From assembly GCA_016220005.1 (NCBI GenBank), contig JACRIV010000027.1:11151-75150 (forward strand): a stretch of 64,000 nt of DNA. Reading direction: 5' to 3'. A program made the position numbers and the translations under genes. Each line of letters begins with the position of its first letter. The first letter of the stretch is position 1. The notes under the pieces were generated by a model. The model saw only the letters and a program-made list of their open reading frames with translations, did not search any database and was not told the DNA's origin. Shown in pieces: positions 1,206 through 58,984 of the stretch. Source of the DNA: Deltaproteobacteria bacterium. Its GTDB lineage: Bacteria > Desulfobacterota > Deferrimicrobia > Deferrimicrobiales > Deferrimicrobiaceae.

Positions 1206-3572
1206 ATGATCGCACATCCGGGCGCAAGAAGCTTGAAGATCTCTTCCGAAAGGGATAGGGGGAAGGATCGGCCGTCCTTTCCGGAGCTCCTGGCGCCCGC
1301 CGGCTCCGCGGAAGCCTACTTCGCCGCCGTCTCGGCGGGGGCGGACGCCGTCTACCTCGGCCTCGAGAAATTCAGCGCCCGGGAGCGGGCGGAGAATTTC
1401 ACCCTCGAGGAATTGTGCAGGGTCCTGCCGCACTCCAAGGCGCACGGGGTGCGGGTCTACCTCGCGATGAACACGCTTCTCACGGAGGCGGACCTCCCCG
1501 AGGCGATCTCGCTGCTCCACCAGGTGGCGCCGTTGTCCCCCGATGGAGTCATCGTCCAGGACCTGGGCCTCCTGCGCATCGTCCGCGAGTATTTCCCCGG
1601 GCTTCCCATCCATGTCAGCACCCAGGCCGGATGCGCCTCGGCCTCGGCCGCCGCCGAGTTCGCGCGGCTGGGGGGCCAGCGGGTGATCCTCGAGCGCCAC
1701 CTGACTCTCGACGAGGTCCGCCGGATCGTTCCCCGGGCACCCGTGGGGATCGAGATTTTCGTTCACGGCGCGATGTGCTATTCCTATTCGGGAAAATGCT
1801 TCTTCTCCTCCTTCCTCGGGGGCAAGAGCGGGAACCGCGGGGCGTGCGTGCAGCCTTGCCGTCGGCTCTATGGACACCCCGGTGGCGAGGAGGCGGTCTT
1901 CTCGACGCGCGATCTTTCTCTCATCGACCGGCTCCCGGAGCTGGTGAAGCTGGGCTTCACCGCATTCAAGATCGAAGGGCGGATGCGCAGCGCCGAGTAC
2001 GTGGCGGGCGTCGTCTCCGCATACCGGGCGGCCCTTGACCTCATCCGCGAGGGGAAGCCGGCGGAGGGAGTCGCGGAGGGAAGGAAGATCCTTGCCGAAG
2101 TGATCGGGCGGGAAGAAACGCCGGGCCTGACCGGCGGGGCGGCCCCCGGCGAGGTCGTCGCCGGCGGAAGCACGGGGAACGTGGGAGAACCGCTGGGCGC
2201 CATACGGGACGTCCGGGAGGGATGGGCGTTCATTCCGGGGAGCGTCGCCGTGTCGCGGGGGGACAGGCTCCGCGTCCAGTTCCAGTCCGACGGGTCGGGG
2301 AAGGGGTTCACGGCGCTCTCGATGCGGGCCGATGCGGGCGGCCTCTACGTCAAGGCGCCCTTTCCCGTCTCCCCCGGAGACCTCCTGTTCCGCGTGGGCG
2401 GAGGCGGACGAGCCGTGCTGACCCGCCGGGCGAAAAGAGAGATGGAGGCGATCCTCTCGGGAGGGCTGGGATTCCGGGTCGTCGTCGGAGATGGACTGGT
2501 GGCCATCGAAGCGGCTTACGGGAAAGTGAAGAGGTCGTTCTCCTTCCGCGTCTCGGGGGGGAGCGGCGCCGCCGCGGGGCGGCTTCCTCCCGACGCCGAG
2601 GCGAGGCTTCGGAGCGCCTGCCGCTGCGACCTCCCCTTCAGTGAGATCCGCGTCGAAGGGCACGGCGCGACGGTTTCCTGGCCGGACGTGGAGGCCCTGT
2701 TCGTGAAGGCCGCCAGGAAGTTCGACAAGGATTTCTACCTTTCCGGCAAGGAGCTCCGCCTCTCCATCCTCCCGGCGCTCCGGGTCTCCGGGAACCGGCG
2801 GGAGAAGGTCCCGGCGGTCTTCTTCACGGGATGCCTCCCCGATCAGCTTGCGCACCTTCCGCGGGGCGAGGAAATCGTCCCCGTGGTGGAATTCACACGG
2901 GGGCTTGCGAGGGACCCCGCGCCGGCCGGGCGCGGCCCGTTCCGCGACCGTACTTATCTCCGCCTGGCGCCCCCGTTCCTCGAAAGCGACGCCGCGTTTC
3001 TCAGGCGGACCGTCAGGGAGGCGGTCCTCAAGGGGCACCGCCGCTGGGTGGTTTCCGACGTGGGCCACTTCGCGCTCTTCGCGGGGTTCGACCTGCGGCG
3101 CGAGGTGACCCTGATCAGCGACCATTACCTGTACGGTTTCAACATGGGGGCGCTCTCCGTCCTGTCCCGCCTGGGCGCCTCCCGGATGGTCCTCCCCATC
3201 GAGGCGCCGCTTTCCGCCCTGCGCGCGGTGGGGAAATACCTGCACGGCCTGGGGATCGCCGTGGCCTACGCCGCCGTGCCCCTGATGATCTCCCACCTCG
3301 TTCCCGCCGCCGGGGTCCGGGGGGAGGTCGTGAGCCCCAGGGCGGAGCGGTTCGCGGTCGAGGCCGACGACCGCGGGTCGACCGTCCGTCCGGACCGGCC
3401 GTTCTCCGCCTCGGGCTCTCTCCACGAGATCCGAGCCGCGGGGATCCAGGATTTCTACGTGGACCTGCATGCCGTCCCCCACGAAGGGATCGGGCCGCTC
3501 TTCGACGCGCTGCTCTCCGACAGGGAGATCCCCGGCGCCTCCACCTTCAACCTCTTCCGGGGAAACTTCTAG
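1206..3572 (+). CDS. Peptidase U32 family protein (long form, ~788 aa, with an extended C-terminal region)
   Basis: Carries the U32 signature PELLAPAGS...AYFAAVSAGADAVYLGLEKFSARE...CYSYSGKCFFSSFLGGKSGNRGACVQPCRR. ATG at 1206 is preceded by GGGGGGAGGA. The upstream half of the ORF-track entry (474..) is antisense to lemA and was rejected. Confidence 0.8.
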   Translation: MIAHPGARSLKISSERDRGKDRPSFPELLAPAGSAEAYFAAVSAGADAVYLGLEKFSARERAENFTLEELCRVLPHSKAHGVRVYLAMNTLLTEADLPEAISLLHQVAPLSPDGVIVQDLGLLRIVREYFPGLPIHVSTQAGCASASAAAEFARLGGQRVILERHLTLDEVRRIVPRAPVGIEIFVHGAMCYSYSGKCFFSSFLGGKSGNRGACVQPCRRLYGHPGGEEAVFSTRDLSLIDRLPELVKLGFTAFKIEGRMRSAEYVAGVVSAYRAALDLIREGKPAEGVAEGRKILAEVIGREETPGLTGGAAPGEVVAGGSTGNVGEPLGAIRDVREGWAFIPGSVAVSRGDRLRVQFQSDGSGKGFTALSMRADAGGLYVKAPFPVSPGDLLFRVGGGGRAVLTRRAKREMEAILSGGLGFRVVVGDGLVAIEAAYGKVKRSFSFRVSGGSGAAAGRLPPDAEARLRSACRCDLPFSEIRVEGHGATVSWPDVEALFVKAARKFDKDFYLSGKELRLSILPALRVSGNRREKVPAVFFTGCLPDQLAHLPRGEEIVPVVEFTRGLARDPAPAGRGPFRDRTYLRLAPPFLESDAAFLRRTVREAVLKGHRRWVVSDVGHFALFAGFDLRREVTLISDHYLYGFNMGALSVLSRLGASRMVLPIEAPLSALRAVGKYLHGLGIAVAYAAVPLMISHLVPAAGVRGEVVSPRAERFAVEADDRGSTVRPDRPFSASGSLHEIRAAGIQDFYVDLHAVPHEGIGPLFDALLSDREIPGASTFNLFRGNF

Positions 3573-3688
3573 TGCACCGTCTCGTAAATAGCTTGAAGCA
3601 CCGAGAGCGTCGATGCGCCGCGCCAGCGAGGCGCGCGACTGAGGCATACTTTTAAGTATGGTGAACGAGCACAACGAAGCTGGAGCGG

Positions 3689-5758
3689 ATGCAGCGGCGC
3701 TCGAATGCCAAGATATTTGCGAGACGGTGCACTAGGTTGGCCCCGCTTTCGAAGGTCCGCAATATCGGGATCATCGCCCACATCGACGCCGGGAAGACCA
3801 CGTTCACCGAGCGGGTCCTGTTCTACTCGGGGGTCACCCATCGGATGGGCGAGGTCCACGAGGGCGACGCCCAGATGGACTACCTGCCGCAGGAGCGGGA
3901 GCGGGGGATCACGATTACGGCGGCGGTCACCCAATTCCAGTGGCTCGGGGCGGAGGTCCACCTGATCGACACCCCCGGGCACGTGGATTTCACGATCGAG
4001 GTGGAACGGTCGCTCCGAGTGCTGGACGGGGCCGTGGTGATCTTCGAGGGCGTGGCCGGCGTGGAGGCCCAGTCGGAAATGGTGTGGAGGCAGGCCGATC
4101 GTCACGGTATCCCTCGGGTCGCGTTCATCAACAAGCTCGACCGGCCGGGGGCCGATTTCGACCGGGTGATCCGGGAGATGAAGGAGAGGCTCTCCGCCCG
4201 GGGGGTCCCGGTGACGGCACCGCTGCACGGCGACGGGGCATTCCGGGCGGTGGCGGACCTGGTCACGATGGAGCGCGTCGAGTTTTCGGAGAACGGGCAC
4301 GGCCAGGAGGTCCGGAGGACGCTTCTCGCGGAGGAGGACAGGCGTCTTGTAGCCCGGCACCGCGAGGCGCTTCTTGAGGCCGCGGCGGACGCGGATGACC
4401 GGGTCGCCGAGATGTACCTCGGGGGGGAGGAGATCCCGCCCTCCATGCTCCGCGCGGCGATCCGGAAAGGGACGCTCGCCAACCGCTTCTTCCCCGTGTT
4501 CGCCGGCGCGGCGCTGCGCAACAAGGGGGTGCAGCCGGTCATGGACGGAATCGTGCAGTTCCTCCCCTCGCCGCTGGAAAGGCCTGCCGCTTCGGGGGAC
4601 GATCCCCGCACCGGAGTCCCGACCCGGCGGGAGCCTTCGCCTTCCGCGCCCTTCTCGGCGCTGGTGTTCAAGGTGGTGATCGAGGAAGGCCGCCGGACGG
4701 TCTACATTCGAATCTACTCCGGGAAGGTGAATGAGGGGGATCTCCTCCTCAATGCCTCCACCGGTGAGCAGGAGAAGGTCGCGCGGCTCTTCCGCATGCA
4801 CGCGGGGAAGAAGGAGAGGATTCTCGCGGCGACGGCCGGGGAGATCGTTGCGGCGAGGGGAGTCAAGTCCGCCCGCACGGGAGACACGCTCTGCGACCCC
4901 GCGGCGCCCATCCTCCTCGAGCCGATAGAGATCCGCAGGCCCGTGGTGTCGATCGCCGTGGAGCCCAGGACGCTCCGGGACATTGACCGCCTCCGGGACA
5001 CGCTTGCGGCGATCATGGACGAGGACCCGACGCTTGCGAGCAAGGAGGACGCCGACACCGGACAGATCATCCTGTCCGGGATGGGGGAGCTCCACCTGGA
5101 TATCCTGGTGGACCGCCTCGCCAGGGACTTCGGGCTCGCGGTCCGCACGGGGAAGCCGCAGGTCGTCTATCGGGAGACGATCGCCGAAACGGCGAGCGCG
5201 GAGACGGTCTTCGAGCGGGAGATCGCGGAGCGGCTGGTGAGCGTGAAGATCGCCCTTTCGGTCCAGCCGGGGCCGCGCGGTTCGGGGGTGAAGATCTCGG
5301 ACCGGCTGCGGATGCTCTCCCTGCCCCAGGAGGCGGCCGATGCCGTGGAGCAGGGGATCCGGGAGGGGACGTTCGCGGGCGTCCTGGGCTACCCGGTGGA
5401 CGACGTGGCGGTGGAGGTCGCCCACGTGGAGTTCCTCTCCGGCACGGCATCGCCCCTGGCCGCCAGGGTAGCCGCGGTGAAGGCGTTCCTCTCCGCGTAC
5501 GAGAAGGGGAAGCCGTACCTGCTGGAACCGGTCATGGAGGTGGAGGTCAACGTGCCCGACGAGTTCCTGGGCGGGGTCATCGGCGACATCAACGCGCGCC
5601 GGGGGCGGATCACCCTCGTGGACCGGAGGCAGGACGCGAGCCTCCTTTCCGCCGCGGTCCCTCTCAGGGAGATGTTCGGGTACGTGACGGCCCTGCGTTC
5701 CCTGTCGCAGGGGCGGGGCATCCATAGGATGAAGTTCTCCCATTACGATAAGGCATGA
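3689..5758 (+). CDS. fusA: Elongation factor G paralog (EF-G2-like translational GTPase)
   Basis: G domain NIGIIAHIDAGKTTFTERVLFYSG...DTPGHVDFTIEVERSLRVLDGAVVIFEGVAGVEAQSE...INKLDR, with EF-G domains II–V following. It is not in a str-operon context (flanked by a U32 peptidase and an acyl-CoA dehydrogenase), so it is probably a second EF-G copy. Confidence 0.85.
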   Translation: MQRRSNAKIFARRCTRLAPLSKVRNIGIIAHIDAGKTTFTERVLFYSGVTHRMGEVHEGDAQMDYLPQERERGITITAAVTQFQWLGAEVHLIDTPGHVDFTIEVERSLRVLDGAVVIFEGVAGVEAQSEMVWRQADRHGIPRVAFINKLDRPGADFDRVIREMKERLSARGVPVTAPLHGDGAFRAVADLVTMERVEFSENGHGQEVRRTLLAEEDRRLVARHREALLEAAADADDRVAEMYLGGEEIPPSMLRAAIRKGTLANRFFPVFAGAALRNKGVQPVMDGIVQFLPSPLERPAASGDDPRTGVPTRREPSPSAPFSALVFKVVIEEGRRTVYIRIYSGKVNEGDLLLNASTGEQEKVARLFRMHAGKKERILAATAGEIVAARGVKSARTGDTLCDPAAPILLEPIEIRRPVVSIAVEPRTLRDIDRLRDTLAAIMDEDPTLASKEDADTGQIILSGMGELHLDILVDRLARDFGLAVRTGKPQVVYRETIAETASAETVFEREIAERLVSVKIALSVQPGPRGSGVKISDRLRMLSLPQEAADAVEQGIREGTFAGVLGYPVDDVAVEVAHVEFLSGTASPLAARVAAVKAFLSAYEKGKPYLLEPVMEVEVNVPDEFLGGVIGDINARRGRITLVDRRQDASLLSAAVPLREMFGYVTALRSLSQGRGIHRMKFSHYDKA

Positions 5759-8385: not shown

Positions 8386-9273
8386 TCACGCTCTCGCCGC
8401 GTACCGGTCCCCCTGGCGGGCCGCGTCCCCCCGCGCGAGCATCCCTTCCAGGTGCTTGGATAGAAGCGCCCATTCCCCGTAGTCGAACCATGGACCCGCG
8501 TGCCCCTCGCCGTAGAGTATCCGCCGGGCGATGATCTCCTGCCTGCTGCGGGGACGGCGCAGGAAGTCCCTCAAGGCGTCCTCGCGGCGGTCGATGCAGG
8601 AAAGGTACGCGGCGATCTTCGGGCCGATGTCTCCCCGGTGGACCGCCTCCTCGTGGGAGACGACGTTGACCGGGGCGCCGATCTCCGCAAGCAGCCTGGC
8701 CGACCGGCGGAACGTCTCGATGCTCCCGGGCTTGTCCCCGTACCACGGTCCGAACGCCGTGAGGTCGTAATCGCCCAGGAACAGGATCCCCTCGGAAGGG
8801 AAATGGAGACACAGGTGGCCGGGCGTATGCCCCGGCGCGACGACGGCCACCGCCTCGGTGCGGCCGAAGTGGAGGCGCTCCCCGTCCGCGATCCGGCGGG
8901 CGACCCTGCGGGCGGCGAAGGAGAACTTCTCGGCAAGGAGCGTCCTGAAGAAATATTCCCATTCCGACCCCGCCACGCCGTAGCGGTCCAGCAGCGTCTC
9001 GAAGGATTCCAGGGCGGAGGCGTCCGCCTCGGAGCTCCACACGTCCACGTCCGGGAGCATGTGGAGAAAGAGGAAGTGGTCCTCGTGATAGTGGGTCATC
9101 ACGACGGCCGCAAGTCCCTCCTCCTTCTTCAGGCGGAGGATGTCCTGGAGGTCCGAGCCGCAGTCGATCAGAACGCCGCCGCCGTCCTTCACGTACAGCG
9201 AGTGGGCGTACGGGTAGCGTCCTCCCTTGCCCCCTTCGACGAGCCAGATCCGGTCGGCAAGCCGCTGGATCAT
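8386..9273 (-). CDS. MBL-fold metallo-hydrolase
   Basis: Starts MIQRLADRIWLVEGG...; metal-binding motif VMTHYHEDHFLFL and a downstream PGHTPGH. ATG at 9273 is preceded by GGAGGAGGTGGAGGG. The upstream part of the ORF-track entry (to 9432) lies in repeat A1 and was rejected. Confidence 0.75.
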   Translation of the reverse strand: MIQRLADRIWLVEGGKGGRYPYAHSLYVKDGGGVLIDCGSDLQDILRLKKEEGLAAVVMTHYHEDHFLFLHMLPDVDVWSSEADASALESFETLLDRYGVAGSEWEYFFRTLLAEKFSFAARRVARRIADGERLHFGRTEAVAVVAPGHTPGHLCLHFPSEGILFLGDYDLTAFGPWYGDKPGSIETFRRSARLLAEIGAPVNVVSHEEAVHRGDIGPKIAAYLSCIDRREDALRDFLRRPRSRQEIIARRILYGEGHAGPWFDYGEWALLSKHLEGMLARGDAARQGDRYAARA

Positions 9274-9306
9274 CCCTCCACCTCCTCCCGCAATGGACGC
9301 CGAAGC

Positions 9307-9520
9307 CGTGAGACGGCTTCGCCTCAGGGGGCTCCGTGCTCGCGTCGTCGCCTGCGGCTCCCCGGCTGCGTCCAGCGAAAGTGTTTTACGGACCCGTCCC
9401 AGTCTTTCCAGATCACCATGCAGTCCGCGCACCCTTTTCTATCTCAGGACGACGGGGCCTTTCGCCGGTTCCGCCGCGGCTCCTCGCTTGCGCCGGACCC
9501 CCCTTGCGGCGTGCGCCTTC
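9307..9520. repeat. Intergenic repeat family A, copy 1: ~55-nt and ~60-nt conserved ends flanking a non-conserved ~95-nt core
   Basis: Left block ...gggggctccgtgctcgcgtcgtcgcctgcggctcccc (9325-9364) and right block ggttccgccgcggc..cgcttgcgccggacccccctt.cggc..gcgcct (9460-9520) recur at 30794-31011, about 21 kb away. The central ~100 nt are unrelated between the copies. Confidence 0.6.
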
Positions 9521-9623
9521 CCCAGGGTGCGGCAGCCCCACGTGTGCCCCGCGCTCTACGCGCGTTGTTGCGGGATCGGGTTATGATGAAAGGTATTCTA
9601 TGCGGGGAGGGCGTGCGCCGCAA

Positions 9624-10040
9624 ATGAGAAAAGTCCTGCTGCTTCCTTTCTGCCTGTCGAGGGAGGCCCAGGCGGAGATCGAGCGGATCGCCGCGGAGGC
9701 CGGCTACAGGGTGGTCGTGGCGCGATCGACCGCCAAGGCCCTGGCCGAGGTGCGAGAAGCCGCCGTCCCGGGCAGCGCCGAGCCGGTGCGGATCGTCGGG
9801 GTGGTCTGCGACGGGCGGGCCAAGAAGGTTTGGGCAGGGCTCGTCCTGTTGAAGATCAGACAGTGGGGGAAGAAGGCGCTCGGCCTCAAGGCGCGCAGGA
9901 TCGAGCTGGCCCGCGTGGGGATCCTCGGAGGGACCAAGGCGCTGTTCGGCAGGAGGCGCTGCCGCGTAGGGTTCAACGTCGCCGACGGGGAAGCACTGCG
10001 GCGCGCCTTGTCCGGCGGGGACACCTATATGCGTCTCTGA
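9624..10040 (+). CDS. Hypothetical protein (138 aa)
   Basis: ATG 9624 is preceded by GGGGAGGG 12 nt upstream. GC3 is very high (~90%), consistent with genuine coding in this genome. The TGA stop abuts the murJ stop on the opposite strand. No recognisable domain; alternative frames are also open, so confidence is modest. Confidence 0.4.
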   Translation: MRKVLLLPFCLSREAQAEIERIAAEAGYRVVVARSTAKALAEVREAAVPGSAEPVRIVGVVCDGRAKKVWAGLVLLKIRQWGKKALGLKARRIELARVGILGGTKALFGRRRCRVGFNVADGEALRRALSGGDTYMRL

Positions 10041-28748: not shown

Positions 28749-30734
28749 TTATTCGATCAGTGCAAACCTCGGCAGGACGCCCGCCGGGATCTCCTCCACG
28801 AACCGGGACGGCCGCGACAGCACCGTCCCGGAGGCGCGCTCGTAGATGTTGACCGGGTAGGTCATCACCAGCACGTCCTTGGCGCGGGTCGCCGCGACGT
28901 AGAGCAGCCGCCGCTCCTCCTCCATCTCTTCCTCCTCTTCCGCGGCCCGGGAGAGGGGGAGCTTTCCGTCCAGCACCCAGACGATGAAGACCGCCTTCCA
29001 CTCCAGCCCCTTGGCGGAATGGATCGTGGAGAGCGTCAAAGACTCCTCCTCCCCTTCCGGGGCGGCGATGTCCCCCACGGAGGCCTGGGGCGGCTCCAGG
29101 GTGATCTCGGAGAGAAAGTCCGACAGGGTCTTGTACCGGGCGCACAGCGATTCCAGGTGGTCGAGGTCCTTGAGCCGCCGCGGGTAGTCGTCGAACCGGC
29201 CCTCCATGAGGGGCCGGTAGTACCCGATCACTCGGGCCACGATCTCCGTCACCGGCAGCGTTCCGCCCTGTCCCCCGGCTTCCCGGCCCGATAGCTCCGA
29301 CAGCAGCTTCGCCAGCAGCGAAGCCTCCTCGGATCCTCTCCTCTTTTTCAGGGTGGAAAGGACCGGAAGGAGCGAAGCTTCCTCGTGGGCCCGCCGGTAA
29401 AGGTCGGCGCTGACCTTCCTTCCGATGCCCGGGACAAGCATGAGCGCCCGCGACAGGCTCAGGGTGTCCCGCGGGTTGTCGATCACCCGCAGGTGAGCGA
29501 TCACGTCCTTGACGTGGGCCGTCTCGAGGAACTTGAACCCCCCGAACTTCCGATAGGGGATGTGCCGTTTGGCAAGCTCCAGCTCCAAATCGAAAGACAG
29601 GTAGGCGGCGCGGAACAGGACGGCGATCTCGCTCAAGGGGATCCCTTGCTCCTCGTGCAGCTCGAGGATCCGGTCGGCCACGAAGGCGGACTGGATCCGC
29701 TCGTTGGGGGCGGACAGGAGCGCCGCCTTCTCCCCCCCGGAGCGGGAGGTGAAGAGCCGCTTCGGGAACTTCTCCGCGGCCCGGGCGATGATCTCGTTGG
29801 TGACGTCCAGGATCGGCTGCCGGCTGCGGTAGTTCTCCTCCAGGAACACCACTTTCGCCCCGGGAAAGTCCGCGGGGAAGTCCATGATGTTCCGGAAGTT
29901 CGCTCCCCGGAACGAGTAGATGCTCTGCGAGTCGTCGCCCACGGCCATCACGTTGTCGTGGGCCGCCGCCAGGAGGCGCAGGATCTCCGCCTGGATCCGG
30001 TTGGTGTCCTGGTATTCGTCCACCAGGACGTGCCGGTAGGTTTCGGACACCGCGCGGCGGATCGGCTCGTTTTCCCGGAGGAGGGCGACCAGCCGGACCA
30101 GGAGATCGTCGTAGTCCATCAGGTTCCTCTCCCGCTTGGTCCGCTCGTACAGGCGTTGGATCGCGAGGATATCCCCCAGGCAGTACAGGAAGTGGGGCGC
30201 CTCCCGCTCCACGGCCGGCTCGATCTCCTCCTCGCGGTTCACCGCCCGGCTGAAGAGGTCCGCCAGGGTCTCCTTCTTGGGGAAGCGTACGGTCTTGTGC
30301 CCCGCGTGGATCTCGTGCCGCAGGAGGCCGATGAGGTCCTGAGCGTCCGCCCGGTCGAGGATGGTGAAGTTCTCGCCGAAGCCCGCGGCGGACGCGTAGC
30401 GCCGCAGGAGGGAGTTGGCGAAGGCATGGAAGGTCCCGCCGGCGACTTTCTCGCACCGGCGGTCCAGGAGGAGGGCCGCCCTCCGGAGCATCTCTTCCGA
30501 AGCCCTGCGGGTGAAGGTGAGCAGGAGGATGGAAGAGGGCGTGTGCCCGAGCTCCACGAGGCGTGCGACGCGGTAGATGAGGGTGCGGGTCTTTCCCGTC
30601 CCCGCCCCCGCGACTACCAGGAGGGGGCCGTCGCCGTGGAGCACCGCCTCCGCCTGGCGGGGGTTGAGGGCCTTCTCGTAGTCGATCTTGCCGCCGGGTG
30701 CGGGGATCTCGCGAATCGAATATCGTTTCTCCAA
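28749..30734 (-). CDS. uvrD: UvrD/PcrA/Rep family ATP-dependent DNA helicase
   Basis: Walker A ...LLVVAGAGTGKTRTLIYRVARL, then motifs II–VI (...YRHVLVDEYQDTNRIQAEIL..., ...LEENYRS..., ...TIHSAKGLEWKAVFIV...LLYVAATRAKDVL). Start set at TTG 30734 (preceded by AGGAGAG), because the M1 codon of the ORF track lies inside repeat A2. Confidence 0.8.
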   Translation of the reverse strand: MEKRYSIREIPAPGGKIDYEKALNPRQAEAVLHGDGPLLVVAGAGTGKTRTLIYRVARLVELGHTPSSILLLTFTRRASEEMLRRAALLLDRRCEKVAGGTFHAFANSLLRRYASAAGFGENFTILDRADAQDLIGLLRHEIHAGHKTVRFPKKETLADLFSRAVNREEEIEPAVEREAPHFLYCLGDILAIQRLYERTKRERNLMDYDDLLVRLVALLRENEPIRRAVSETYRHVLVDEYQDTNRIQAEILRLLAAAHDNVMAVGDDSQSIYSFRGANFRNIMDFPADFPGAKVVFLEENYRSRQPILDVTNEIIARAAEKFPKRLFTSRSGGEKAALLSAPNERIQSAFVADRILELHEEQGIPLSEIAVLFRAAYLSFDLELELAKRHIPYRKFGGFKFLETAHVKDVIAHLRVIDNPRDTLSLSRALMLVPGIGRKVSADLYRRAHEEASLLPVLSTLKKRRGSEEASLLAKLLSELSGREAGGQGGTLPVTEIVARVIGYYRPLMEGRFDDYPRRLKDLDHLESLCARYKTLSDFLSEITLEPPQASVGDIAAPEGEEESLTLSTIHSAKGLEWKAVFIVWVLDGKLPLSRAAEEEEEMEEERRLLYVAATRAKDVLVMTYPVNIYERASGTVLSRPSRFVEEIPAGVLPRFALIE

Positions 30735-30793
30735 GACTCTCCTCGCTACCAGCTGTGGTTCGGCGCTACCATCATGTATTATGCCGCCGATGC

Positions 30794-31011
30794 GTGAGGC
30801 GCTTAGCCTACGGGGGCTCCGTGCTCGCATCGTCGCCTGCGGCTCCCCTGCATATTACTCCACGTGCCACGCGGTGCTCTCCTCGCACTTCGGTCACCCG
30901 CCGTCGCCCGCCAAGCCGGTTTGTTGCGACGGTAGTGTGCTTGAGACAGACGGTTCCGCCGCGGCGTCTCGCTTGCGCCGGACCCCCCTTCGGCTGCGCC
31001 TCACGCACACG
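30794..31011. repeat. Intergenic repeat family A, copy 2
   Basis: Left block ...cgggggctccgtgctcgcatcgtcgcctgcggctcccc (30810-30849) and right block ggttccgccgcggcgtctcgcttgcgccggaccccccttcggctgcgcct (30953-31011) match copy 1 at ~90% identity. The ~100-nt core is unrelated. Confidence 0.6.
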
Positions 31012-31041
31012 ATACTTTGCCCGAACCATGTTGCGCAGCAC

Positions 31042-31842
31042 TTACGCGGCGTAGCAGTACAGGCAGCCGTGGCGGCAGGTGCGGTAGGAGCCGATGTCCC
31101 GGGACGCGGAGCACAGGCAGCCGGGGCGCGACGGCGCGGGCGACGCCGGGATCTCCGCGCCGGGCCACAACGACCGCAGGTACGGGCCGTCCACGCAGGC
31201 GCCGGCGGGAACGCCCCAGTCGGCGAGCAGCGGGGTGCAGCAGGATTGGACGGCGAATCCCCTCGCTTTCCCGATTTCGAGGAGGCGCTCCACGGCGGTC
31301 CGCAGGCGGTCGTCCGGTCCCCAGATTCCACGAACGCCCCGCGTCGCCCTCAGGCTCTTCCGATATGGGTGGGCGATGCTCAAGGTGCAGCGGCCCGACA
31401 TGCCGGCGAGCGCGGCGGAGATCCGCTCGAAGCGCGCAACGAGCGCCTCGGGATCCTCGCCGGGGAGGAGGGGATCGAACCTCCAGAGGACGCGCCCGGG
31501 GCCGACCCGTTCCGAGAGCTCCCGGAAAGCGGAGACGGCCTCCTCGACCGCCGGAACGCAAGGCTCCAATTCGCGGGGAAGCCCCGTCAGGGTGAACTGG
31601 AAGATCGACCGATACCCTTCCCGTTCGAGGCGGGCAAGGACGGGGAAGAAGGGACGGGGGTCGCGCGTCCAGAAGACGAAGGCCGCCAGCTGGTCCCGGG
31701 CGAGCGAGACGGCGGCGGGCCGGCCGGAGTAAGGATTACGGTATTCCGCCATCCCCGCGGACAGGCAGGAGGAGAACCATTCCGAGTGGAAGGCCGGGAT
31801 GTCGGTGCGCCGGGACGCGCTGATGATTACGGACGAGGACAC
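31042..31842 (-). CDS. DUF1848 domain protein (C-terminal Cys cluster, putative Fe-S)
   Basis: Starts ..IISASRRTDIPAFHSEWF (conserved DUF1848 N-terminus). C-terminal CLCSASRDIGSYRTCRHGCLYCYA. GTG start at 31842 directly abuts AAGGAG, an unusually short spacing. Confidence 0.65.
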   Translation of the reverse strand: MSSSVIISASRRTDIPAFHSEWFSSCLSAGMAEYRNPYSGRPAAVSLARDQLAAFVFWTRDPRPFFPVLARLEREGYRSIFQFTLTGLPRELEPCVPAVEEAVSAFRELSERVGPGRVLWRFDPLLPGEDPEALVARFERISAALAGMSGRCTLSIAHPYRKSLRATRGVRGIWGPDDRLRTAVERLLEIGKARGFAVQSCCTPLLADWGVPAGACVDGPYLRSLWPGAEIPASPAPSRPGCLCSASRDIGSYRTCRHGCLYCYAA

Positions 31843-31915
31843 CTCCTTATTCTAGCACCCGGTCTGCTGAGCGGCCCATTACGGAAATGAGCCGCTCAGC
31901 GACGGCCTGCCGATC

Positions 31916-32245
31916 TTATGGTGCGACGCGACCGTTGTGCTTGGCGCGGTAGATGTGCCGGCTCGAGTGGTTCAGGCGCTTCTGGACTCTCGCGCGTTCG
32001 ACGGGGGTGAAATCCCCGTCCGACTTGAACCGCCGCTCCTGCCGCTCGATCCGGGCCTGCTCCCTTTCGAGCCGGGCCGCCTCGCCGGGGGTGAGGGACC
32101 CACTCTGGACCCCTTGGTAGATCCGCCTCTGCTGGTTGCGCTGCCGCTGCTCGATCCCCGGGGAGGCCGTGTCTCCCGCGATGACCGGTGCCGCCACCGC
32201 GATGGCCAGGGTCGCCGCCACCATCGCCATGATTCCCTTTCTCAT
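31916..32245 (-). CDS. Small secreted protein (109 aa) with an Arg/Gln/Glu-rich helical region
   Basis: Real start MRKGIMAMVAATLAIAVAAPVIAG (ATG 32245 preceded by GAAGGAGGG) is a signal peptide. Body ...QRQRNQQRRIYQGVQSGSLTPGEAARLEREQARIERQERRF... looks like a periplasmic stress-protein-like coiled coil. No firm family assignment. Confidence 0.5.
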   Translation of the reverse strand: MRKGIMAMVAATLAIAVAAPVIAGDTASPGIEQRQRNQQRRIYQGVQSGSLTPGEAARLEREQARIERQERRFKSDGDFTPVERARVQKRLNHSSRHIYRAKHNGRVAP

Positions 32246-32322
32246 TGTCCTGCCCTCCTTCGGTTGAGGATGTGATCCGTTCTTGGCGGAGTAAACCCGG
32301 GAGGCGGGAAAAAGTTTCTTCC

Positions 32323-32351
32323 TTGACAGGGTCGGGGCCGATTGGTAGATT
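32323..32351 (+). promoter_or_regulatory. Sigma-70-type promoter of cspA
   Basis: TTGACA (32323-32328), a 17-nt spacer, then TAGATT (32346-32351), ~30 nt upstream of the csp start codon. Confidence 0.45.
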
Positions 32352-32382
32352 TTCGGCAGCAATCCGAAGGAGGTAAGGGCAA

Positions 32383-32583
32383 GTGGCTCAGGGCACGGTG
32401 AAGTGGTTCAACGACGCGAAGGGTTATGGATTCATCGCGCAGGAAGGCGGACCGGATGTCTTCGTGCACTTCAGCGCGATCAAGGCGGAAGGGTTCCGGT
32501 CGCTGAAGGAGGGCGAGCGCGTCCAGTTCGATATCACCGAAGGCCCCAAGGGTCCGCAGGCCGCCAACGTCGTCAAGGCGTAA
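32383..32583 (+). CDS. cspA: Cold-shock protein (CspA family)
   Basis: (M)[62 protein letters not shown], with canonical RNP1 and RNP2 motifs. GTG start preceded by AAGGAGGT. Confidence 0.9.
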
Positions 32584-32613
32584 ACGGCCCGTCCCTGGCC
32601 TCCCACGGCCACA

Positions 32614-32658
32614 GGGGACATCTCATTAGCTCGAGTGTTACGTTGAATGAGTGTCCCC
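32614..32658 (+). terminator. Long imperfect hairpin downstream of cspA (weak terminator or mRNA-stabilising structure)
   Basis: ggggacatctcatt ...18 nt... aatgagtgtcccc: a 13–14-bp stem with one bulge. There is no U-tract after it, and it overlaps the possible GTG start of nfi. Confidence 0.3.
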
Positions 32659-33352
32659 TCCCATGACGACCGGGAAGATCCCCCCTTTCGCGACGACGAT
32701 CGAGGAGGCCCGCCGGGTCCAGGAGCGCCTCCGCGAGACGGTGCGCCTGGTCCGCCTTCCTCTCGACCACATCCGGCTGGTCGGGGCGGCGGACGTCACC
32801 TTCCTCGGCGAAAAGGAGACCGTGGCGGCCGCCTTCGTCGTCACCGACTTGGAAAGCGGAAAGGTGGTCGAGGAAAAGACCGCCGTGCGCCGGACCGATT
32901 TCCCCTACGTTCCCGGGTACCTCACCTTCCGGGAGGGGCCGGCCGTCCTGGCCGCGTGGCGGAAGATCCGCCGCAAGCCCGACGTCATCCTTTTCGACGG
33001 ACAGGGGATCGCCCATCCCCGCCGGTTCGGCATCGCCTCGCACGTAGGAGTGCTCTTGGATATGCCGAGCGTCGGTGTGGCGAAGAAGCGGCTCGTGGGC
33101 GAGTATTCTCCGCCGGGACCCCGGCGGGGGGATTGGACCCCTCTCCTTTACGAAGGGGAGACCGTGGGGGCGGTGGTCCGCACGCGGGAGGGGGTCAAGC
33201 CGGTCTTCGTGTCGGTGGGGCACCTGGCGGACCTTCCCTCCGCCGTCTCTCTCGTGCTGCGTCTCTGTTCGCGGTATCGGCTCCCCGATCCGGCGAGGCG
33301 CGCCCACCAGCTGACCCGGGAGCTGCGAAAAGAAGGGTCTCCCGGGAATTAA
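32651..33352 (+). CDS. nfi: Endonuclease V (deoxyinosine 3'-endonuclease)
   Basis: Endonuclease V family motifs ...VGAADVTF...PYVPGYLTFREGPAVLAAWRKI...PDVILFDGQGIAHPRRFGIASHVGVLLDMPSVGVAKKRL. The start may be ATG 32663 (MTTGK...) rather than GTG 32651. Confidence 0.8.
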   Translation: MSPPMTTGKIPPFATTIEEARRVQERLRETVRLVRLPLDHIRLVGAADVTFLGEKETVAAAFVVTDLESGKVVEEKTAVRRTDFPYVPGYLTFREGPAVLAAWRKIRRKPDVILFDGQGIAHPRRFGIASHVGVLLDMPSVGVAKKRLVGEYSPPGPRRGDWTPLLYEGETVGAVVRTREGVKPVFVSVGHLADLPSAVSLVLRLCSRYRLPDPARRAHQLTRELRKEGSPGN

Positions 33353-33765
33353 AACTCCAGGACCTCTACCTGGTCTTCCCCGAGGTTGTCGGCAAGCGTC
33401 CAGAACCGGGCCTTTCCATGGGGGAGCCGTAGGAGGACGAAGGCAGGGTCGTCCGCGGAAAACCTTTTCAGGTAATCCCGCTCGTCGATCAGTCTCTGCT
33501 TCTTTCCGCGATCGTCGACGATCTCGAACTCCCCCGTGATGCGCAGCATCTTGCTGAAATCCCTGGAGCAGTAGCAGAGCTCGACATTCCTGTTCCCGCT
33601 GATCTGCCGAAAGACGCTCTTCGTCGCTCCCGTAGTGAAATGGATCTTCCCGTCCTCGAACAGGACGGACAGAAATGCCCGGACGCGGGGCTGGTCCCCG
33701 TCGACGGTGGCGACGCTGCACACGGGGTTTTCCCGGACGAAATCCAGGACGTCTTCATAGCGCAT
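33349..33765 (-). CDS. Pyridoxamine 5'-phosphate oxidase family (FMN-binding split barrel) protein
   Basis: Starts MRYEDVLDFVRENPVCSVATVDGDQPRVRAFLSV..., the PNPOx-like fold signature (ATG 33765 preceded by GGGAGGAAG). Its stop overlaps the nfi stop (convergent). Confidence 0.7.
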   Translation of the reverse strand: MRYEDVLDFVRENPVCSVATVDGDQPRVRAFLSVLFEDGKIHFTTGATKSVFRQISGNRNVELCYCSRDFSKMLRITGEFEIVDDRGKKQRLIDERDYLKRFSADDPAFVLLRLPHGKARFWTLADNLGEDQVEVLEF

Positions 33766-33837
33766 GTCGGTCTTCCTCCCTGGTGGGGCCGTTTTCCTCA
33801 GGAGCATTATGCGTGAGAAGGATCGACCGGGCTTTCA

Positions 33838-34749
33838 CTATTCGATCAATTTGTTTATGGATGCCGCCATTCCCGTTTTCTTCCTGTACGAGGAGGGGGA
33901 TACCCCGTATTTCCTGGTGAACCGCGCGGAAAGGTAAGCGGCGCTGCCGAACCCGCAGTCGAGCGCGATCTCCGTGATGGTCATGTCTCCGGCGAGGAGC
34001 ATTTTTTTCGCCCGGTCAAGACGGATCCGGAGGAGGTATTCGATCGGCGCCTGCCCGGTCTCCTCCCGGAACACGCGGGAAAGATGCGAAGGAGACATGC
34101 GGGCGATCCGTGCAAGCCCCTCGACGGTGATCTTCTCGCCCGGATGGGTATGCATGTGCTCGACCACCCTGTCGATCTCCACGCGGGAGGAAACACGGTC
34201 CCGCATCTCGGGATATCGCCGCGCGCTCCGGATGAGCGCGTGGCAGATCTGGACGCCCAGCGCCTCCAGCACCTCTTCCGACCCCGGGCCGGAATTGTCG
34301 GCCTCGATCATGAAGGATTTCAGAAGGGGCAGCAGGGTCGAAGGGGGGTCGAGGAATTCTCCGCGGAAGATCCGTTTCCCCGATTCCGGATACCGGCGAT
34401 AGTGCTTCTCGAAGAATCGCTTCTTGACGAAAACCGCGATGTACCTCGGCGGGGTATCCGACGGGGCCTCCTCGTGCTCGATTCCCGGGGAAAGGGCGAA
34501 GAGCTTTCCCGGCGAGGTGACGAGCGCCTTCCCGTCGATCCGGATCGCGTTGTTTTCGTCAAAGGGGAGGATGAACATGTAGGAGGGGTGGCTGTGCCGG
34601 GGGGTCCGGGCGTAGAAGCAGGCCCCGCCCACCGGCACGAACAGGCCGAGATCCCTCCCCACGAAACAATCCACGTAGCGAAGCTGCTCCGGGGTTGCGT
34701 TCCCCACGAGCTTGCGGATTTTTCCGAGAGGGAGTTCCATGAGGTCCAC
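33838..34749 (-). CDS. AraC family transcriptional regulator
   Basis: N-terminal cupin-like sensor domain. C-terminal double HTH ...ITVEGLARIARMSPSHLSRVFREETGQAPIEYLLRIRLDRAKKMLLAGDMTITEIALDCGFGSAAYLSARFTRKYGVSPSSYR. Confidence 0.8.
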   Translation of the reverse strand: MDLMELPLGKIRKLVGNATPEQLRYVDCFVGRDLGLFVPVGGACFYARTPRHSHPSYMFILPFDENNAIRIDGKALVTSPGKLFALSPGIEHEEAPSDTPPRYIAVFVKKRFFEKHYRRYPESGKRIFRGEFLDPPSTLLPLLKSFMIEADNSGPGSEEVLEALGVQICHALIRSARRYPEMRDRVSSRVEIDRVVEHMHTHPGEKITVEGLARIARMSPSHLSRVFREETGQAPIEYLLRIRLDRAKKMLLAGDMTITEIALDCGFGSAAYLSARFTRKYGVSPSSYRKKTGMAASINKLIE

Positions 34750-34835
34750 GGGAGCCCGGCGGCGCTCCGGAAAAACCGAACGGCGGCCCCGTTCATCGGG
34801 CCGCCGTTCGCAAGGGGGATCGGTTGCCGGCCTAT

Positions 34836-35256: not shown

Positions 35257-36009
35257 TTATTGGAACTTCACGATATTTGCGAACACGTCGGCTTTCAGGC
35301 TCGCCCCGCCGACCAGCGCCCCGTCGATATCATTCCGCCCCATCAGGTCGGCGATGTTCTCCGGCTTGACGGAGCCCCCGTAGAGGATGCGGACGGACCG
35401 GGCAGCCGTAGCCCCCCATAGCTCGGATAGGAGGCCCCGAAGGAAGGCGTGGACCTCCTGGGCCTGCGCGGGCGTGGCCGTCCTTCCCGTCCCGATCGCC
35501 CAGACCGGCTCGTAGGCGACGATGACCCGGGAGGAGTCGGAAGCGGGAATACCGGCCAGACCCGTCCGGAGCTGCCGTTCGACCACCTCGAACGTCCTTC
35601 CTTCCTCCCGCTCCGAGAGCGTTTCCCCGAGGCACATGACGGGCACGAGGCCCGAAGCCAGAGCGGCCTTGACTTTGCGGTTGACGGAGTCGTCGGTCTC
35701 GGCGAAATACTGCCTCCGCTCCGAGTGGCCGATGATCGCGTACGCGGCCCCGGCGTCCTTCACCATGCCGGGCGAGACCTCTCCCGTATAGGCGCCCTCC
35801 TCGGCGAAGTGCATGTTCTGCGACGCCACGCCGACGTTGGTCCCCGCCGTCAGCGCCGCGACCGGTCCGAGGGAGGGGAAGGGGGGGGCAAGGACGATCT
35901 CGACCCCCGTGACGCCCGAGACGAGAGGGAGAAGCTCCTTCACGAAAGCGGTCGCCTCCCCCATCGTCTTGTACATCTTCCAGTTGCCGGCGATGAGCGG
36001 AATCCGCAT
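35257..36009 (-). CDS. tpiA: Triose-phosphate isomerase
   Basis: MRIPLIAGNWKM...AYEPVWAIGTG...ILYGGSVK; 250 aa. Confidence 0.9.
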   Translation of the reverse strand: MRIPLIAGNWKMYKTMGEATAFVKELLPLVSGVTGVEIVLAPPFPSLGPVAALTAGTNVGVASQNMHFAEEGAYTGEVSPGMVKDAGAAYAIIGHSERRQYFAETDDSVNRKVKAALASGLVPVMCLGETLSEREEGRTFEVVERQLRTGLAGIPASDSSRVIVAYEPVWAIGTGRTATPAQAQEVHAFLRGLLSELWGATAARSVRILYGGSVKPENIADLMGRNDIDGALVGGASLKADVFANIVKFQ

Positions 36010-38159: not shown

Positions 38160-38322
38160 GTGCCGTGTCCCCTCGGCGTTCGGTTTGCGTTATCCTCCCA
38201 CCGCGCGACCTCCGCGTAAAGGTTCTGTATAATTAGCTGACGCCGCCGCCACGCCATGCGTGCGCCGCTGACGCCTGGACCGCGCTGGAGACTCATGCAG
38301 CAGGGGACGGCCCGCGTGCGAG

Positions 38323-38482
38323 CCGCCGCAACGGGGTGCCCTTCGCGGGGGTCTGAGCGACGAAGCGGGAGCCAGGGATGGCGGAGCAAGGAGCGACGAA
38401 GCCGCCGCCCGTCCAGGGACGGACGGGCAAGGCGTCCCCCGCGAGGGGTACCCCGTGAGGCGAGCGTAGCACGCCAGCGGAG
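38323..38482. repeat. Intergenic repeat family B, copy 1 (~160 bp)
   Basis: gccgccgcaacggggtgcccttcgcgggggtctgagcgacgaag...ccagggatggcgga...gagcgacgaagccgccgccc.tccagggacggacgggcaaggcgtcccccgcgaggggtaccccgtgaggcgagcgtagcacgc recurs at 48281-48440 with ~93% identity. Internal imperfect direct sub-repeat gagcgacgaag-N-ccaggga.gg..gg occurs twice. Confidence 0.6.
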
Positions 38483-38522
38483 CCCTCGGGACGGAAATGA
38501 AGCACGACGGGGAGGTGATCGT

Positions 38523-48257: not shown

Positions 48258-48280
48258 CTGCGCTTCCCGCCCGCGGGCAA

Positions 48281-48440
48281 GCCGCCGCAACGGGATGCCC
48301 TTCGCGGGGGTCTGAGCGACGAAGTGAGAGCCAGGGATGGCGGAACGAGGAGCGACGAAGCCGCCGCCCGCCCAGGGACGGACGGGCAAGGCGTCCCCCG
48401 CGAGGGGTATCCCGTGAGGCGAGCATAGCACGCGGGCTGC
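48281..48440. repeat. Intergenic repeat family B, copy 2
   Basis: ~93% identical to 38323-38482 over ~160 nt, in the same plus-strand orientation. It lies between the tatD-rSAM start and the metG stop. Confidence 0.6.
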
Positions 48441-48476
48441 GCTCCGCCGGCGTAACGGACTCCGGCATCGGCGGCT

Positions 48477-56868: not shown

Positions 56869-56923
56869 TCGTAACGGATCGCATTTGGGCGGCTCGCGGT
56901 GAACTGGCCGGATCAAGGAGGGG

Positions 56924-58984
56924 GTGGACATGTTTCCCCTGCGCCGGGAAAGGGTTTGCTTCGTCGCACCGGTCGCTTCCGTTTTGTTGTTCTTATTCGC
57001 CGTCCTTTCCGCCGGGACGTCCTTCGCCCTGGATAACGGGCAGTGTTTCGACTGCCACGGCGATTCGGGGATCCTCGCCTGGTCCGCCTCGGAAAAGGCG
57101 AGCAACGTGAAGGCCCGCGGGCCGGCAAAGCCCGCCCGCTTCGTCGGCCCGTTCCCCGGCATCTCCCTCTACGTCGACTCCGGCAAGTACAAGGCCTCGG
57201 TCCACGCGGACCTCTCCTGCACGGACTGCCACGGGGACGTCACGGACCTTCCCCACACCGCCCGGCTCGCCCCCGTGGACTGCTCGGGCTGCCATTCCGC
57301 GGCGGCCGCGGTCTTCAAGAAGAGCAGGCACGTGGTGGTGCACAAGAAGAACAACGTGGGGTACACCCCCCGGTGCTCCGACTGCCACGGGGCGCACGCA
57401 ATCACGAAGTCGTCCGTCTCCACTTCGCCCGTCTACTTCCGGAACATCGCGGCGACCTGCACGCGGTGCCACGCCAGCCGGGAGCTGGCCGAGCGGGGCG
57501 GCATCGCCATTCCCGGCGCGGCGAAGATGTATGAAAAGAGCATCCACAACCGGGCGATCGTCGAGAAGGGGCTGAACAAGTCCGCAAGCTGCGTCGACTG
57601 CCACGGATCGCACGACCTTACGGACCGGCTCGACCCCGCTTCGCCCATCTTCCGGTCGAATATCCCCGAGACCTGCGGAAAATGCCACTACGGTGTGTAC
57701 ACGATCTTCCGGGACAGCGTCCACGGGGCGGCGTTCTACCGGGGCGTCCCCGACGCCCCCGGGTGCACCGACTGTCATGGAGAGCACGACATCCGCCAGG
57801 CGGCGGACCCCGGCTCCAGCGTATCCTTCGCCGCGGTGTCGGAGAAGACCTGCCCCTCCTGCCATGCCGCCGAGAAGCTTTCCAACCGGTACGGCGTCGC
57901 TACGGAGAAGGTGAAGGGCTACCAGGAGAGCTTCCACGGGCTTTCCCAGAAACTCGGGGACACGACGGTGGCCAACTGCTCCTCCTGCCACGGGGGCCAC
58001 GAGATCTTCCGGTCCTCCGATCCCCGTTCGACCGTGCATCCCAAGAACCTCCAGGTCACCTGCGGGAAGTGCCACCCCGGGGCCACGGAGAACTTCGCCA
58101 AGGGGAACATCCACGTCGGCCCGGGCGGGGTCGGGGGGGAGGTCAAGTACTGGGTGGAGAGGATCTACATCTGGATGATCGTCGTGGTCATCGGCGGGAT
58201 GGTCGTCCACAACGGCGCCGATTATTTCCGGAAGCTGCAGGCCATCTACCGGCAGCGGAGGGAGTGGGAGCATCCGGGGTACGAGCGGATGAACGCGCCG
58301 GAACGGCTGCAGCATTACCTCACCCTGACGACTTTCTTCGTCCTCGTGATCACCGGCTTCGCGCTGAAATACAAGTGGTCGATCCCGTTCCTCTCGGACG
58401 CGGCGAACGTGGCCCTGCGGGCGAAGGGGCACCGCGTCGCGGCCGTGCTCATGGTGGCGACGTGCGTCTATCACGTTTTCTACGTGATCTTCACGGCCAG
58501 GGGACGGGACCAGTTCGTCCGGATGATGCCCGTTCTGCAGGACGGCCGGGACGTCGCAGGGATGATCAGGTACTTCGCGGGGCTCGATCACCACAAGCCC
58601 GCGTTCGGCCGGTACAGCTACGTGGAAAAGGCGGAGTACCTGGCCCTGGTGTGGGGCTCGATCGTCATGATCGTCACCGGGTTCATGCTCTGGTTCCAGG
58701 ACGAGACGCTCCGGCACATCCCCATGTGGGGCCTGGACGTGGCGACGATCGTCCATTACTACGAGGCAATCCTGGCCACCCTGGCCATTTTCGTCTGGCA
58801 CCTGTATTACGTGATCCTGAACCCTGACGTCGCCCCGATGTCGCTCACCTGGATCGACGGGAAGATCTCCCGCCACCACATGGAGCACGAGCACGGGCTG
58901 GAGCTCCGGGAAATCGAGGATCAGGAAAAGCAGGTCGGGGCCAGGGCGCCGGGAGGAACAAGGATCGCCACGGAGGAACCATGA
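56924..58984 (+). CDS. Fused multiheme cytochrome c (11 CxxCH) / di-heme cytochrome b (FdnI/HydC-like) membrane protein, CbcL-like
   Basis: Signal/TM segment, then CxxCH motifs CFDCH, CTDCH, CSGCH, CSDCH, CTRCH, CVDCH, CGKCH, CTDCH, CPSCH, CSSCH, CGKCH. The C-terminal ~260 aa have 4–5 TM helices with conserved His (…YWVERIYIWMIVVVIGGMVVHNG…, …VYHVFYVIF…, …VWHLYYVIL…), the type found in formate dehydrogenase gamma subunits. RBS AAGGAGGGGG. Confidence 0.8.
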   Translation: MDMFPLRRERVCFVAPVASVLLFLFAVLSAGTSFALDNGQCFDCHGDSGILAWSASEKASNVKARGPAKPARFVGPFPGISLYVDSGKYKASVHADLSCTDCHGDVTDLPHTARLAPVDCSGCHSAAAAVFKKSRHVVVHKKNNVGYTPRCSDCHGAHAITKSSVSTSPVYFRNIAATCTRCHASRELAERGGIAIPGAAKMYEKSIHNRAIVEKGLNKSASCVDCHGSHDLTDRLDPASPIFRSNIPETCGKCHYGVYTIFRDSVHGAAFYRGVPDAPGCTDCHGEHDIRQAADPGSSVSFAAVSEKTCPSCHAAEKLSNRYGVATEKVKGYQESFHGLSQKLGDTTVANCSSCHGGHEIFRSSDPRSTVHPKNLQVTCGKCHPGATENFAKGNIHVGPGGVGGEVKYWVERIYIWMIVVVIGGMVVHNGADYFRKLQAIYRQRREWEHPGYERMNAPERLQHYLTLTTFFVLVITGFALKYKWSIPFLSDAANVALRAKGHRVAAVLMVATCVYHVFYVIFTARGRDQFVRMMPVLQDGRDVAGMIRYFAGLDHHKPAFGRYSYVEKAEYLALVWGSIVMIVTGFMLWFQDETLRHIPMWGLDVATIVHYYEAILATLAIFVWHLYYVILNPDVAPMSLTWIDGKISRHHMEHEHGLELREIEDQEKQVGARAPGGTRIATEEP

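Follow-up and report, generated by a model that had tools for sequence, protein, structure and literature searches.

Two elements in the window, the 64,000-nt stretch of DNA analysed here, share conserved ends that pair with each other and enclose cores of unrelated sequence. We assign them, with moderate confidence, to a new family of intergenic repeats of the REP/BIME/REPIN or MITE kind that is specific to its lineage, non-coding and able to form hairpins. The MAG from which the window was taken is labelled Deltaproteobacteria, and its closest relatives carry the label Candidatus Deferrimicrobiaceae, which corresponds to the candidate phylum MBNT15 (PMC9386147). The host is an uncultured bacterium of the iron-reducer type.

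Each element is about 220 nt long and consists of two end blocks of about 50 nt on either side of a core (Table 1). Homology between the two copies extends over 9298-9520 and 30785-31006 and requires small indels. The left blocks are identical at 36 of 37 positions (9327-9363 versus 30812-30848; 90% over a wider stretch of 51 nt) and the right blocks at 38 of 40 (9466-9505 versus 30951-30990). The pattern of each block has exactly two matches in the 64-kb window and none in 100 shuffles. The blocks are very rich in G+C (78-81%), as compared with 58% and 62% for the cores. The cores (99-102 nt between blocks) align locally with a score of 13, against 14 +/- 2 for shuffles, in either orientation, and they show no similarity above chance to each other, to the second repeat family of the window described below, to the repeat of relatives or to any of the fetched loci. 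A repeat search of the window returned the same offset between copies, 21,485, for the left and the right blocks alike, and the unrelated cores are therefore exactly equal in length. The initial annotation had placed two copies at about 9307-9520 and 30794-31011, with left and right blocks about 90% identical and a central part of about 100 nt entirely different between them; all of this is borne out by our homology limits, block identities and core alignment. The equal length of the cores is a point that it did not contain.

Table 1. Coordinates of the two elements, their parts and the adjacent genes in the window.
Feature	Position	Strand	Remarks
MBL-fold hydrolase gene	8386..9273	-	295 aa; true start 9273; ORF inflated to 9432 via copy 1
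Inserted segment, copy 1 locus	~9290..9549	.	~260 nt including core, absent from relatives' spacer; limits +/- few nt
Copy 1, whole element	9298..9520	+	limits of homology with copy 2
Copy 1 left end block	9316..9366	+	near-identical stretch 9327-9363: GGGGGCTCCGTGCTCGCGTCGTCGCCTGCGGCTCCCC
Copy 1 core	9367..9465	+	58% G+C; unrelated to copy 2 core; no excess structure
Copy 1 right end block	9466..9518	+	CGGTTCCGCCGCGGCTCCTCGCTTGCGCCGGACCCCCCTTGCGGCGTGCGCC; pairs with left block
138-aa gene	9624..10040	+	no Pfam match; divergent from MBL gene; native promoter-region sequence kept at ~9575-9623
uvrD/pcrA-type helicase gene	28749..30734	-	661 aa, TTG start
Copy 2, whole element	30785..31006	+	limits of homology with copy 1
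Copy 2 outer helix, 5' arm	30791..30802	+	TGCGTGAGGCGC; perfect 12-bp pairing with 30995-31006
Copy 2 left end block	30801..30851	+	near-identical stretch 30812-30848
Copy 2 core	30852..30950	+	62% G+C; unrelated to copy 1 core
Copy 2 right end block	30951..31003	+	similarity to copy 1 right block; pairing
Copy 2 outer helix, 3' arm	30995..31006	+	GCGCCTCACGCA; perfect pairing with 30791-30802
DUF1848 gene	31042..31842	-	stop codon 36 nt from copy 2 right end

A coding role for the elements was rejected, as the long ORFs that cross the two copies run in different frames and have different ends. A protein database search for such ORFs read through further copies (frame +0 alignment of both copies, E up to 10) found none, and the open frames on the plus strand over the copies are explained by base composition. 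Two Logan contigs of run SRR12113407, which holds the same organism, L012 (7333-9360) and L037 (9350-10428), are 100% identical to the window. We also rejected the idea that the end of L012 in the left block is a repeat-induced break, and hence the trace of a third copy: L012 and L037 overlap by only 11 nt, and their ends at 9350-9360 point to a gap in read coverage of the stem (81% G+C) rather than to a branch.

The left block pairs with the right block along its whole length, in an imperfect helix of about 28 bp. The initial annotation had recognized imperfect inverted repeats in the outer 18 nt of the ends, and the pairing goes well beyond these to cover the whole blocks. The end-block duplex has a computed energy of -67.1 kcal/mol in copy 1 and -75.4 kcal/mol in copy 2, against -48 and -45 +/- 4.7 kcal/mol for shuffled blocks, none of which reached the observed values (0/1000). 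This closing helix recurs in the minimum free energy folds of both strands, with RNA as well as DNA parameters, and in the consensus fold. In copy 2, the terminal inverted repeat matches at 29 of 31 positions and an additional outer helix is perfect; copy 1 lacks this outer 12-bp helix but keeps the inner pairing of about 28 bp. The left terminus of copy 1 (9303-9321) forms a perfect local 7-bp hairpin, GAAGCCG-TGAGA-CGGCTTC, and the equivalent segment of copy 2 pairs with the right terminus instead. Two differences between the copies are double changes that keep the pairing: TTCGCC/GGCG (C:G) in copy 1 versus TTAGCC/GGCT (A:T) in copy 2 in the outer stem, and G:C versus U:A, respectively, at the inner edge of the helix. 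For a set of two sequences, these changes are only suggestive as a hint of covariation. Excess folding relative to shuffles is seen neither in the cores alone (z = -0.2 and -0.3) nor in single blocks or units (z = -0.3 to -1.2); a unit by itself forms only a short stem of 4-6 bp around a C-rich loop. For copy 1 in its entirety, the fold is no more stable than those of shuffles (RNA parameters, z = -1.3; DNA parameters, z = +0.5).

Both copies are insertions relative to the genomes of relatives. The spacer between the MBL-fold hydrolase gene and the 138-aa gene measures 69-84 nt at six loci of relatives (78-89% protein identity) versus 350 nt here. Beyond the insert, the relatives' promoter-proximal sequence (..ATCGGGATATGATGGAA..CGCAAATG) persists at ~9560-9626, and the Shine-Dalgarno side of the spacer is retained at 9274-9289. 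At the second locus, the gap between DUF1848 and uvrD is 15 nt in a relative with identical gene order, as measured from the coordinates of that relative only, without its DNA, versus 307 nt here; in other relatives, SecG stands directly upstream of uvrD and the element is absent. Because nothing resembling a core is found at the empty sites (69-84 nt and 15 nt), the cores arrived together with the end modules. The insert at each locus is larger, by about 45-70 nt, than the segment common to both copies. Flanking duplications had been proposed in the initial annotation as a check of mobility, and here the insertion itself is seen at both loci and no target-site duplication could be defined; the empty-site comparison places the limits of the copy 1 insert only approximately, at about 9290-9549, and for copy 2 it was made from coordinates. 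The only candidates are both very short and weak: copy 2 offers the 3-nt CGA, copy 1 CCCGC.

Copy 1 occupies the spacer between the divergent MBL-fold hydrolase gene (minus strand) and 138-aa gene (plus strand), and copy 2 lies between two minus-strand genes, with the DUF1848 stop codon (31042) on one side and the uvrD start, a TTG (30734), on the other. Each copy sits at least 51-54 nt upstream of a minus-strand gene start. This gene context agrees with the initial annotation, as does the observation that both copies inflate ORF predictions. In the window, the MBL reading frame can be extended to 348 aa, versus 295 aa in all relatives. In the public annotation of the contig (P0001), UvrD is 693 aa long (window 28749-30830), and its annotated start is an ATG within the left block of copy 2 that arises from a G-to-A difference and adds 32 aa at the N-terminus. 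Since all orthologues have 661-664 aa, this extension is probably an annotation artefact. The insertions explain two mis-annotated gene starts (UvrD, 693 versus 661 aa; MBL ORF, 348 versus 295 aa). They also split the DNA-repair gene pair DUF1848-uvrD and distance the MBL hydrolase gene from its native promoter region.

Ten neighbouring ORFs were scanned. Six of them correspond to DUF1848, endonuclease V, a PNPOx-like protein, an AraC-type regulator, a 2-hydroxyacid dehydrogenase and LEA_2, and the remaining four, including the 138-aa gene, have no Pfam match. No transposase, integron integrase or RAYT (Y1 transposase) was found among these ten ORFs near the two copies. The interval between SecG and uvrD (30735-34835) holds about 4 kb more than in relatives of the RBG_16_64_85 type and contains the AraC-type regulator, the PNPOx-like protein, endonuclease V, an unknown ORF of 148 aa and DUF1848. 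Endonuclease V, DUF1848 and UvrD together resemble a DNA-repair cluster, and in a closer relative, JGI 3300056388, the gene order is EndoV-CSD-DUF1848-uvrD; this is the relative with the 15-nt gap between the last two genes.

Searches with exact words did not recover the element elsewhere. A 21-mer of the left block gave 11 scattered chance matches, none of them with a right block, in a collection of species-representative genomes that does not include the host genome, and a 21-mer of the right block had no match in a metagenome collection that likewise does not include it. Viral contigs gave chance 17-mer matches only, and plasmid records gave no match to the element. A degenerate pattern of the right terminal unit, in contrast, found ten metagenome loci. 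At these loci and at the uvrD loci of relatives, a repeat of about 150 nt is present at five or more distinct intergenic sites in Deferrimicrobiaceae (MBNT15) contigs, with the form GCGCCGGATCCCCCTTCGGCTGCGCC / GCCTCGGAGGGGGACTCCGT ... CTGCGGCGACTCCGCCGGACCC..GCGTGCGCCTTCC. Its core is 94-99% identical among copies; in addition, L028 carries a variant with a deletion and L021 an incomplete copy. This repeat is apparently undescribed so far.

The end blocks of the window copies are homologous to parts of this repeat. Homologues of the left block (L020:1105-1142, 87.5% over 40 nt) and of the right block (L023:226-270, 91% over 46 nt) also stand alone, in other arrangements. The alignment of all instances reveals one basic unit, ~GCGCCGGAnCCCCCTTCGGCTGCGCC, in both orientations, and within the window a profile of this unit recovers the four expected instances and no others. 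At 35369-35379, the sequence GGGGGCTCCGT occurs exactly, within the gene for triose-phosphate isomerase, and was dismissed as a chance match. The arrangement is a mosaic in which a single unit alternates in orientation and is joined by differing linkers, as in REP/BIME clusters and REPIN doublets. The ~150-nt repeat of the relatives (e.g. L022:3864-4010 and L013:1075-1230) shares with the window copies the left unit GCCTC..GGGGGCTCCGT, the right unit GCGGC.CC..CGCCGGACCC..GCGTGCGCCTTCC and the intergenic location. However, it has about 84 nt less between its units, its core is conserved (94-99%) where those of the window are unrelated, and it carries an extra leading unit and follows another internal pairing scheme.

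The sites of the ~150-nt repeat are L013:1075-1230, L020:8314-8456, L020:1206-1312, L022:3864-4010, L023:248-396, L026:934-1078 and L028:1785-1855. At five of these seven, the repeat starts 4-12 nt past the stop codon of a co-oriented gene, which suggests a preferred insertion position or a role in 3'-UTRs. In another contig of a relative, a purine-rich stretch of about 200 nt with recurring GCGGNGAG-like motifs (L021:6462-6660) comes right after a single terminal unit.

The window also contains other repeats. A second hairpin family is represented at 38310-38483 and 48269-48442 by two copies that are 92% identical over 174 nt, core included, and that have a closing helix of their own of about 35 bp. 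Its copy near 48 kb fills the MetRS-TatD spacer (48258-48476), in which relatives have their own repeat of about 150 nt and which is equally long in the window. Its copy near 38 kb immediately precedes the start of the gene for 2-hydroxyacid dehydrogenase, whose ORF is thereby inflated to 411 aa. The similarity between this family and the one with unrelated cores is not significant (z = 1.4-2.1); its presence shows that the host genome carries elements of this style. Between genes for a peptidase U32-like and an EF-G-like protein, two arms of 27 nt (3569-3595 and 3709-3735; CTAGTGCACCGTCTCGTAAATAGCTTG) separated by 113 nt form an inverted repeat with 93% complementarity. Its G+C content is lower than that of the DNA around it, and it may represent one more small palindromic element or else a site of regulation. 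A multihaem cytochrome gene cluster at 56900-62000, syntenic with relatives, contains many internally repeated CxxCH-containing modules (families D1, D2, D4-D6, D10 and D13).

If the two copies are indeed hairpin repeats of the REP/BIME/REPIN or MITE kind, each would consist of two end modules of about 50 nt, diverged inverted copies of ~GCGCCGGAnCCCCCTTCGGCTGCGCC with an inner extension, flanking a passenger core of about 100 nt. The end modules would serve as recognition sites for an enzyme acting in trans, most likely a REP-associated tyrosine (Y1/HUH) transposase or a different transposase with its gene elsewhere in the genome, and the element may be mobile as a unit. The closest precedent for such an enzyme would be a RAYT-type Y1 transposase that acts on single-stranded hairpin DNA. 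Through module-module pairing, the element is predicted to adopt a long-stem fold, whether as single-stranded DNA or as RNA. Once inserted, it would be co-transcribed with its neighbours, copy 1 as part of a lengthened 5' leader of the MBL hydrolase gene and copy 2 between DUF1848 and uvrD. REP/BIME elements in E. coli operons affect mRNA stability and processing, and it is tempting to suggest that the stem in the transcript could do the same here.

The sequence of the core would be free to vary in such an element, and its length may be constrained, as in the spacers of REPINs. The REPIN spacer is less conserved than the REPs, and its key features are seemingly its length and its capacity to form a hairpin (PMC3116915). 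This spacer rule is the nearest available account of unrelated cores of equal length, by analogy and with an imperfect fit. The window cores are at chance similarity, whereas the cores of REPINs and of the relatives' repeat are recognizably homologous, and they show no hairpin excess (z = -0.2 and -0.3). A further point against the hairpin-repeat reading is that only two copies are visible, within 64 kb of the host genome. Unrelated cores of identical length would then be one odd feature, in two copies, of elements of an otherwise ordinary kind.

Other explanations have to be weighed against these hairpin repeats. The copies could be classical cut-and-paste MITEs whose ends are bound by a DDE transposase, supplied by a full-length IS at another place in the genome, and which come from two sub-families with the ends alone in common. 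We consider this unlikely. Terminal inverted repeats (29/31 in copy 2), a size of about 220 nt, no coding capacity and insertion polymorphism all fit a MITE, and presence or absence at orthologous sites is observed at both loci (69-84 versus 350 nt; 15 versus 307 nt). However, homology does not run along the whole copy, as the cores are at chance similarity in both orientations. Moreover, copy 1 has no outer terminal repeat, neither CGA (copy 2) nor CCCGC (copy 1) makes a clear target-site duplication, and no IS with these ends was seen in about 375 kb (window plus relatives' DNA). The end modules of relatives are single or head-to-tail, unlike the ends of transposons, and the separation and rearrangement of the blocks in these genomes bring the family closer to REP/BIME mosaics than to a transposon with fixed ends. 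The initial suggestion of a MITE-like element with variable cargo is partly supported, by the inverted ends, the small non-coding size, the insertion at both loci and the dispersed modules; no duplication could be defined, no parent IS was found and only two copies were seen. A second initial suggestion, an attC-like recombination site, taken here as that of an integron or as a cassette boundary, receives almost no credence from us and was rejected. The imperfect inverted repeats and variable centre give a superficial resemblance only: the R''/R' core sites (RYYYAAC, GTTRRRY) are absent from both copies, about 220 nt exceeds the length of an attC site, and there is neither a cassette array nor an integrase among the ten scanned neighbours. 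In addition, the copies lie 21 kb apart between housekeeping genes that are syntenic with relatives.

It is somewhat improbable that the elements are instead a structured RNA, either a cis-acting leader or intergenic element or an sRNA family, in which the closing helix would be the functional scaffold, with a stem bound for instance by RNase III or another protein and an internal domain of about 100 nt that is free or target-specific. The closing helix is strong and conserved in both copies, its pairing survives two double changes, each copy precedes the start of a minus-strand gene by at least 51-54 nt and would be transcribed along with that gene, and equal core length is compatible with an architectural constraint. 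Nevertheless, Rfam 15 gave no match in the window at gathering thresholds and only chance-level ones at E up to 10, no tRNA or tmRNA was found at the element, and no sigma-70-type promoter or intrinsic terminator consensus was found. The cores fold like shuffles, two sequences give no meaningful covariation and the end blocks are found separately in relatives. The element is also absent from the orthologous leaders of all relatives examined and is therefore no conserved regulatory feature of these genes. The sRNA family put forward in the initial annotation thus gains no positive evidence. We find it quite improbable that left and right modules were inserted singly around unrelated DNA, with an equal spacing that is coincidental. 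The modules do occur apart in relatives and the cores show no sign of constraint; but the spacing is identical to the nucleotide, the relative orientation is equal and the helix is full-length in both copies, and the empty sites have no core-like sequence for the modules to have enclosed.

A more radical proposal, to which we give a very low probability, is that the conserved ends are a fixed scaffold for a measured payload of about 100 nt of arbitrary sequence. In DNA form, this could be a hairpin-bounded cassette loaded by an enzyme with a molecular ruler; in RNA form, it could be a constant closing helix with a programmable or target-specific internal domain. If this were true, the equal length of the unrelated cores would reflect a mechanism and not a coincidence.

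Small palindromic repeats are, to our knowledge, poorly catalogued outside Proteobacteria and Firmicutes, and the hairpin repeats favoured here would add a new repeat family for the uncultured MBNT15/Deferrimicrobiaceae lineage. Should unrelated cores of equal length recur in many copies, they would represent an unusually clean case, for a bacterial repeat, of selection on length alone. Such length-only selection, if true, would bear on how REPIN-like elements are recognized and copied.

Among known repeat systems, bacterial MITEs such as Correia/NEMIS, ERIC and the pneumococcal BOX elements are non-coding, 100-250 nt long and have inverted ends that fold as long stems. Their insertions lie close to the starts or ends of genes and lengthen or otherwise change the ORFs called there, and BOX and ERIC combine conserved ends with variable internal content. 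The window copies resemble them in size, lack of coding capacity, stem-forming inverted ends and ORF inflation. They differ in having no TA or other clear duplication, in interiors that are not made of recognizable repeated modules and in being high in G+C rather than A+T-rich. The BIMEs of E. coli, which bind IHF, gyrase and Pol I, differ from the present elements in their unrelated sequence and much shorter linkers. However, here too, in the window and in relatives, one short GC-rich unit is present in both orientations, single, head-to-head or tail-to-tail, with different linkers, and the elements lie between operon genes or after stop codons, where they are probably co-transcribed. REPs and REPINs occur in tens to hundreds of extragenic copies per genome, with a RAYT gene flanked by repeats. 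In contrast to REPINs, the end modules described here are about 50 nt long and individually not clearly palindromic, and the spacer of about 100 nt is wholly unrelated between copies and has no hairpin excess. Like REPINs, the two copies have conserved inverted ends that pair into a hairpin (-67/-75 kcal/mol); their spacers recall those of REPINs in being of one length, with sequences that are unrelated and not just less conserved than the ends. They are also, like REPINs, extragenic, without obvious target duplication, and lineage-specific in sequence, with occupation of the same intergenic sites in related genomes.
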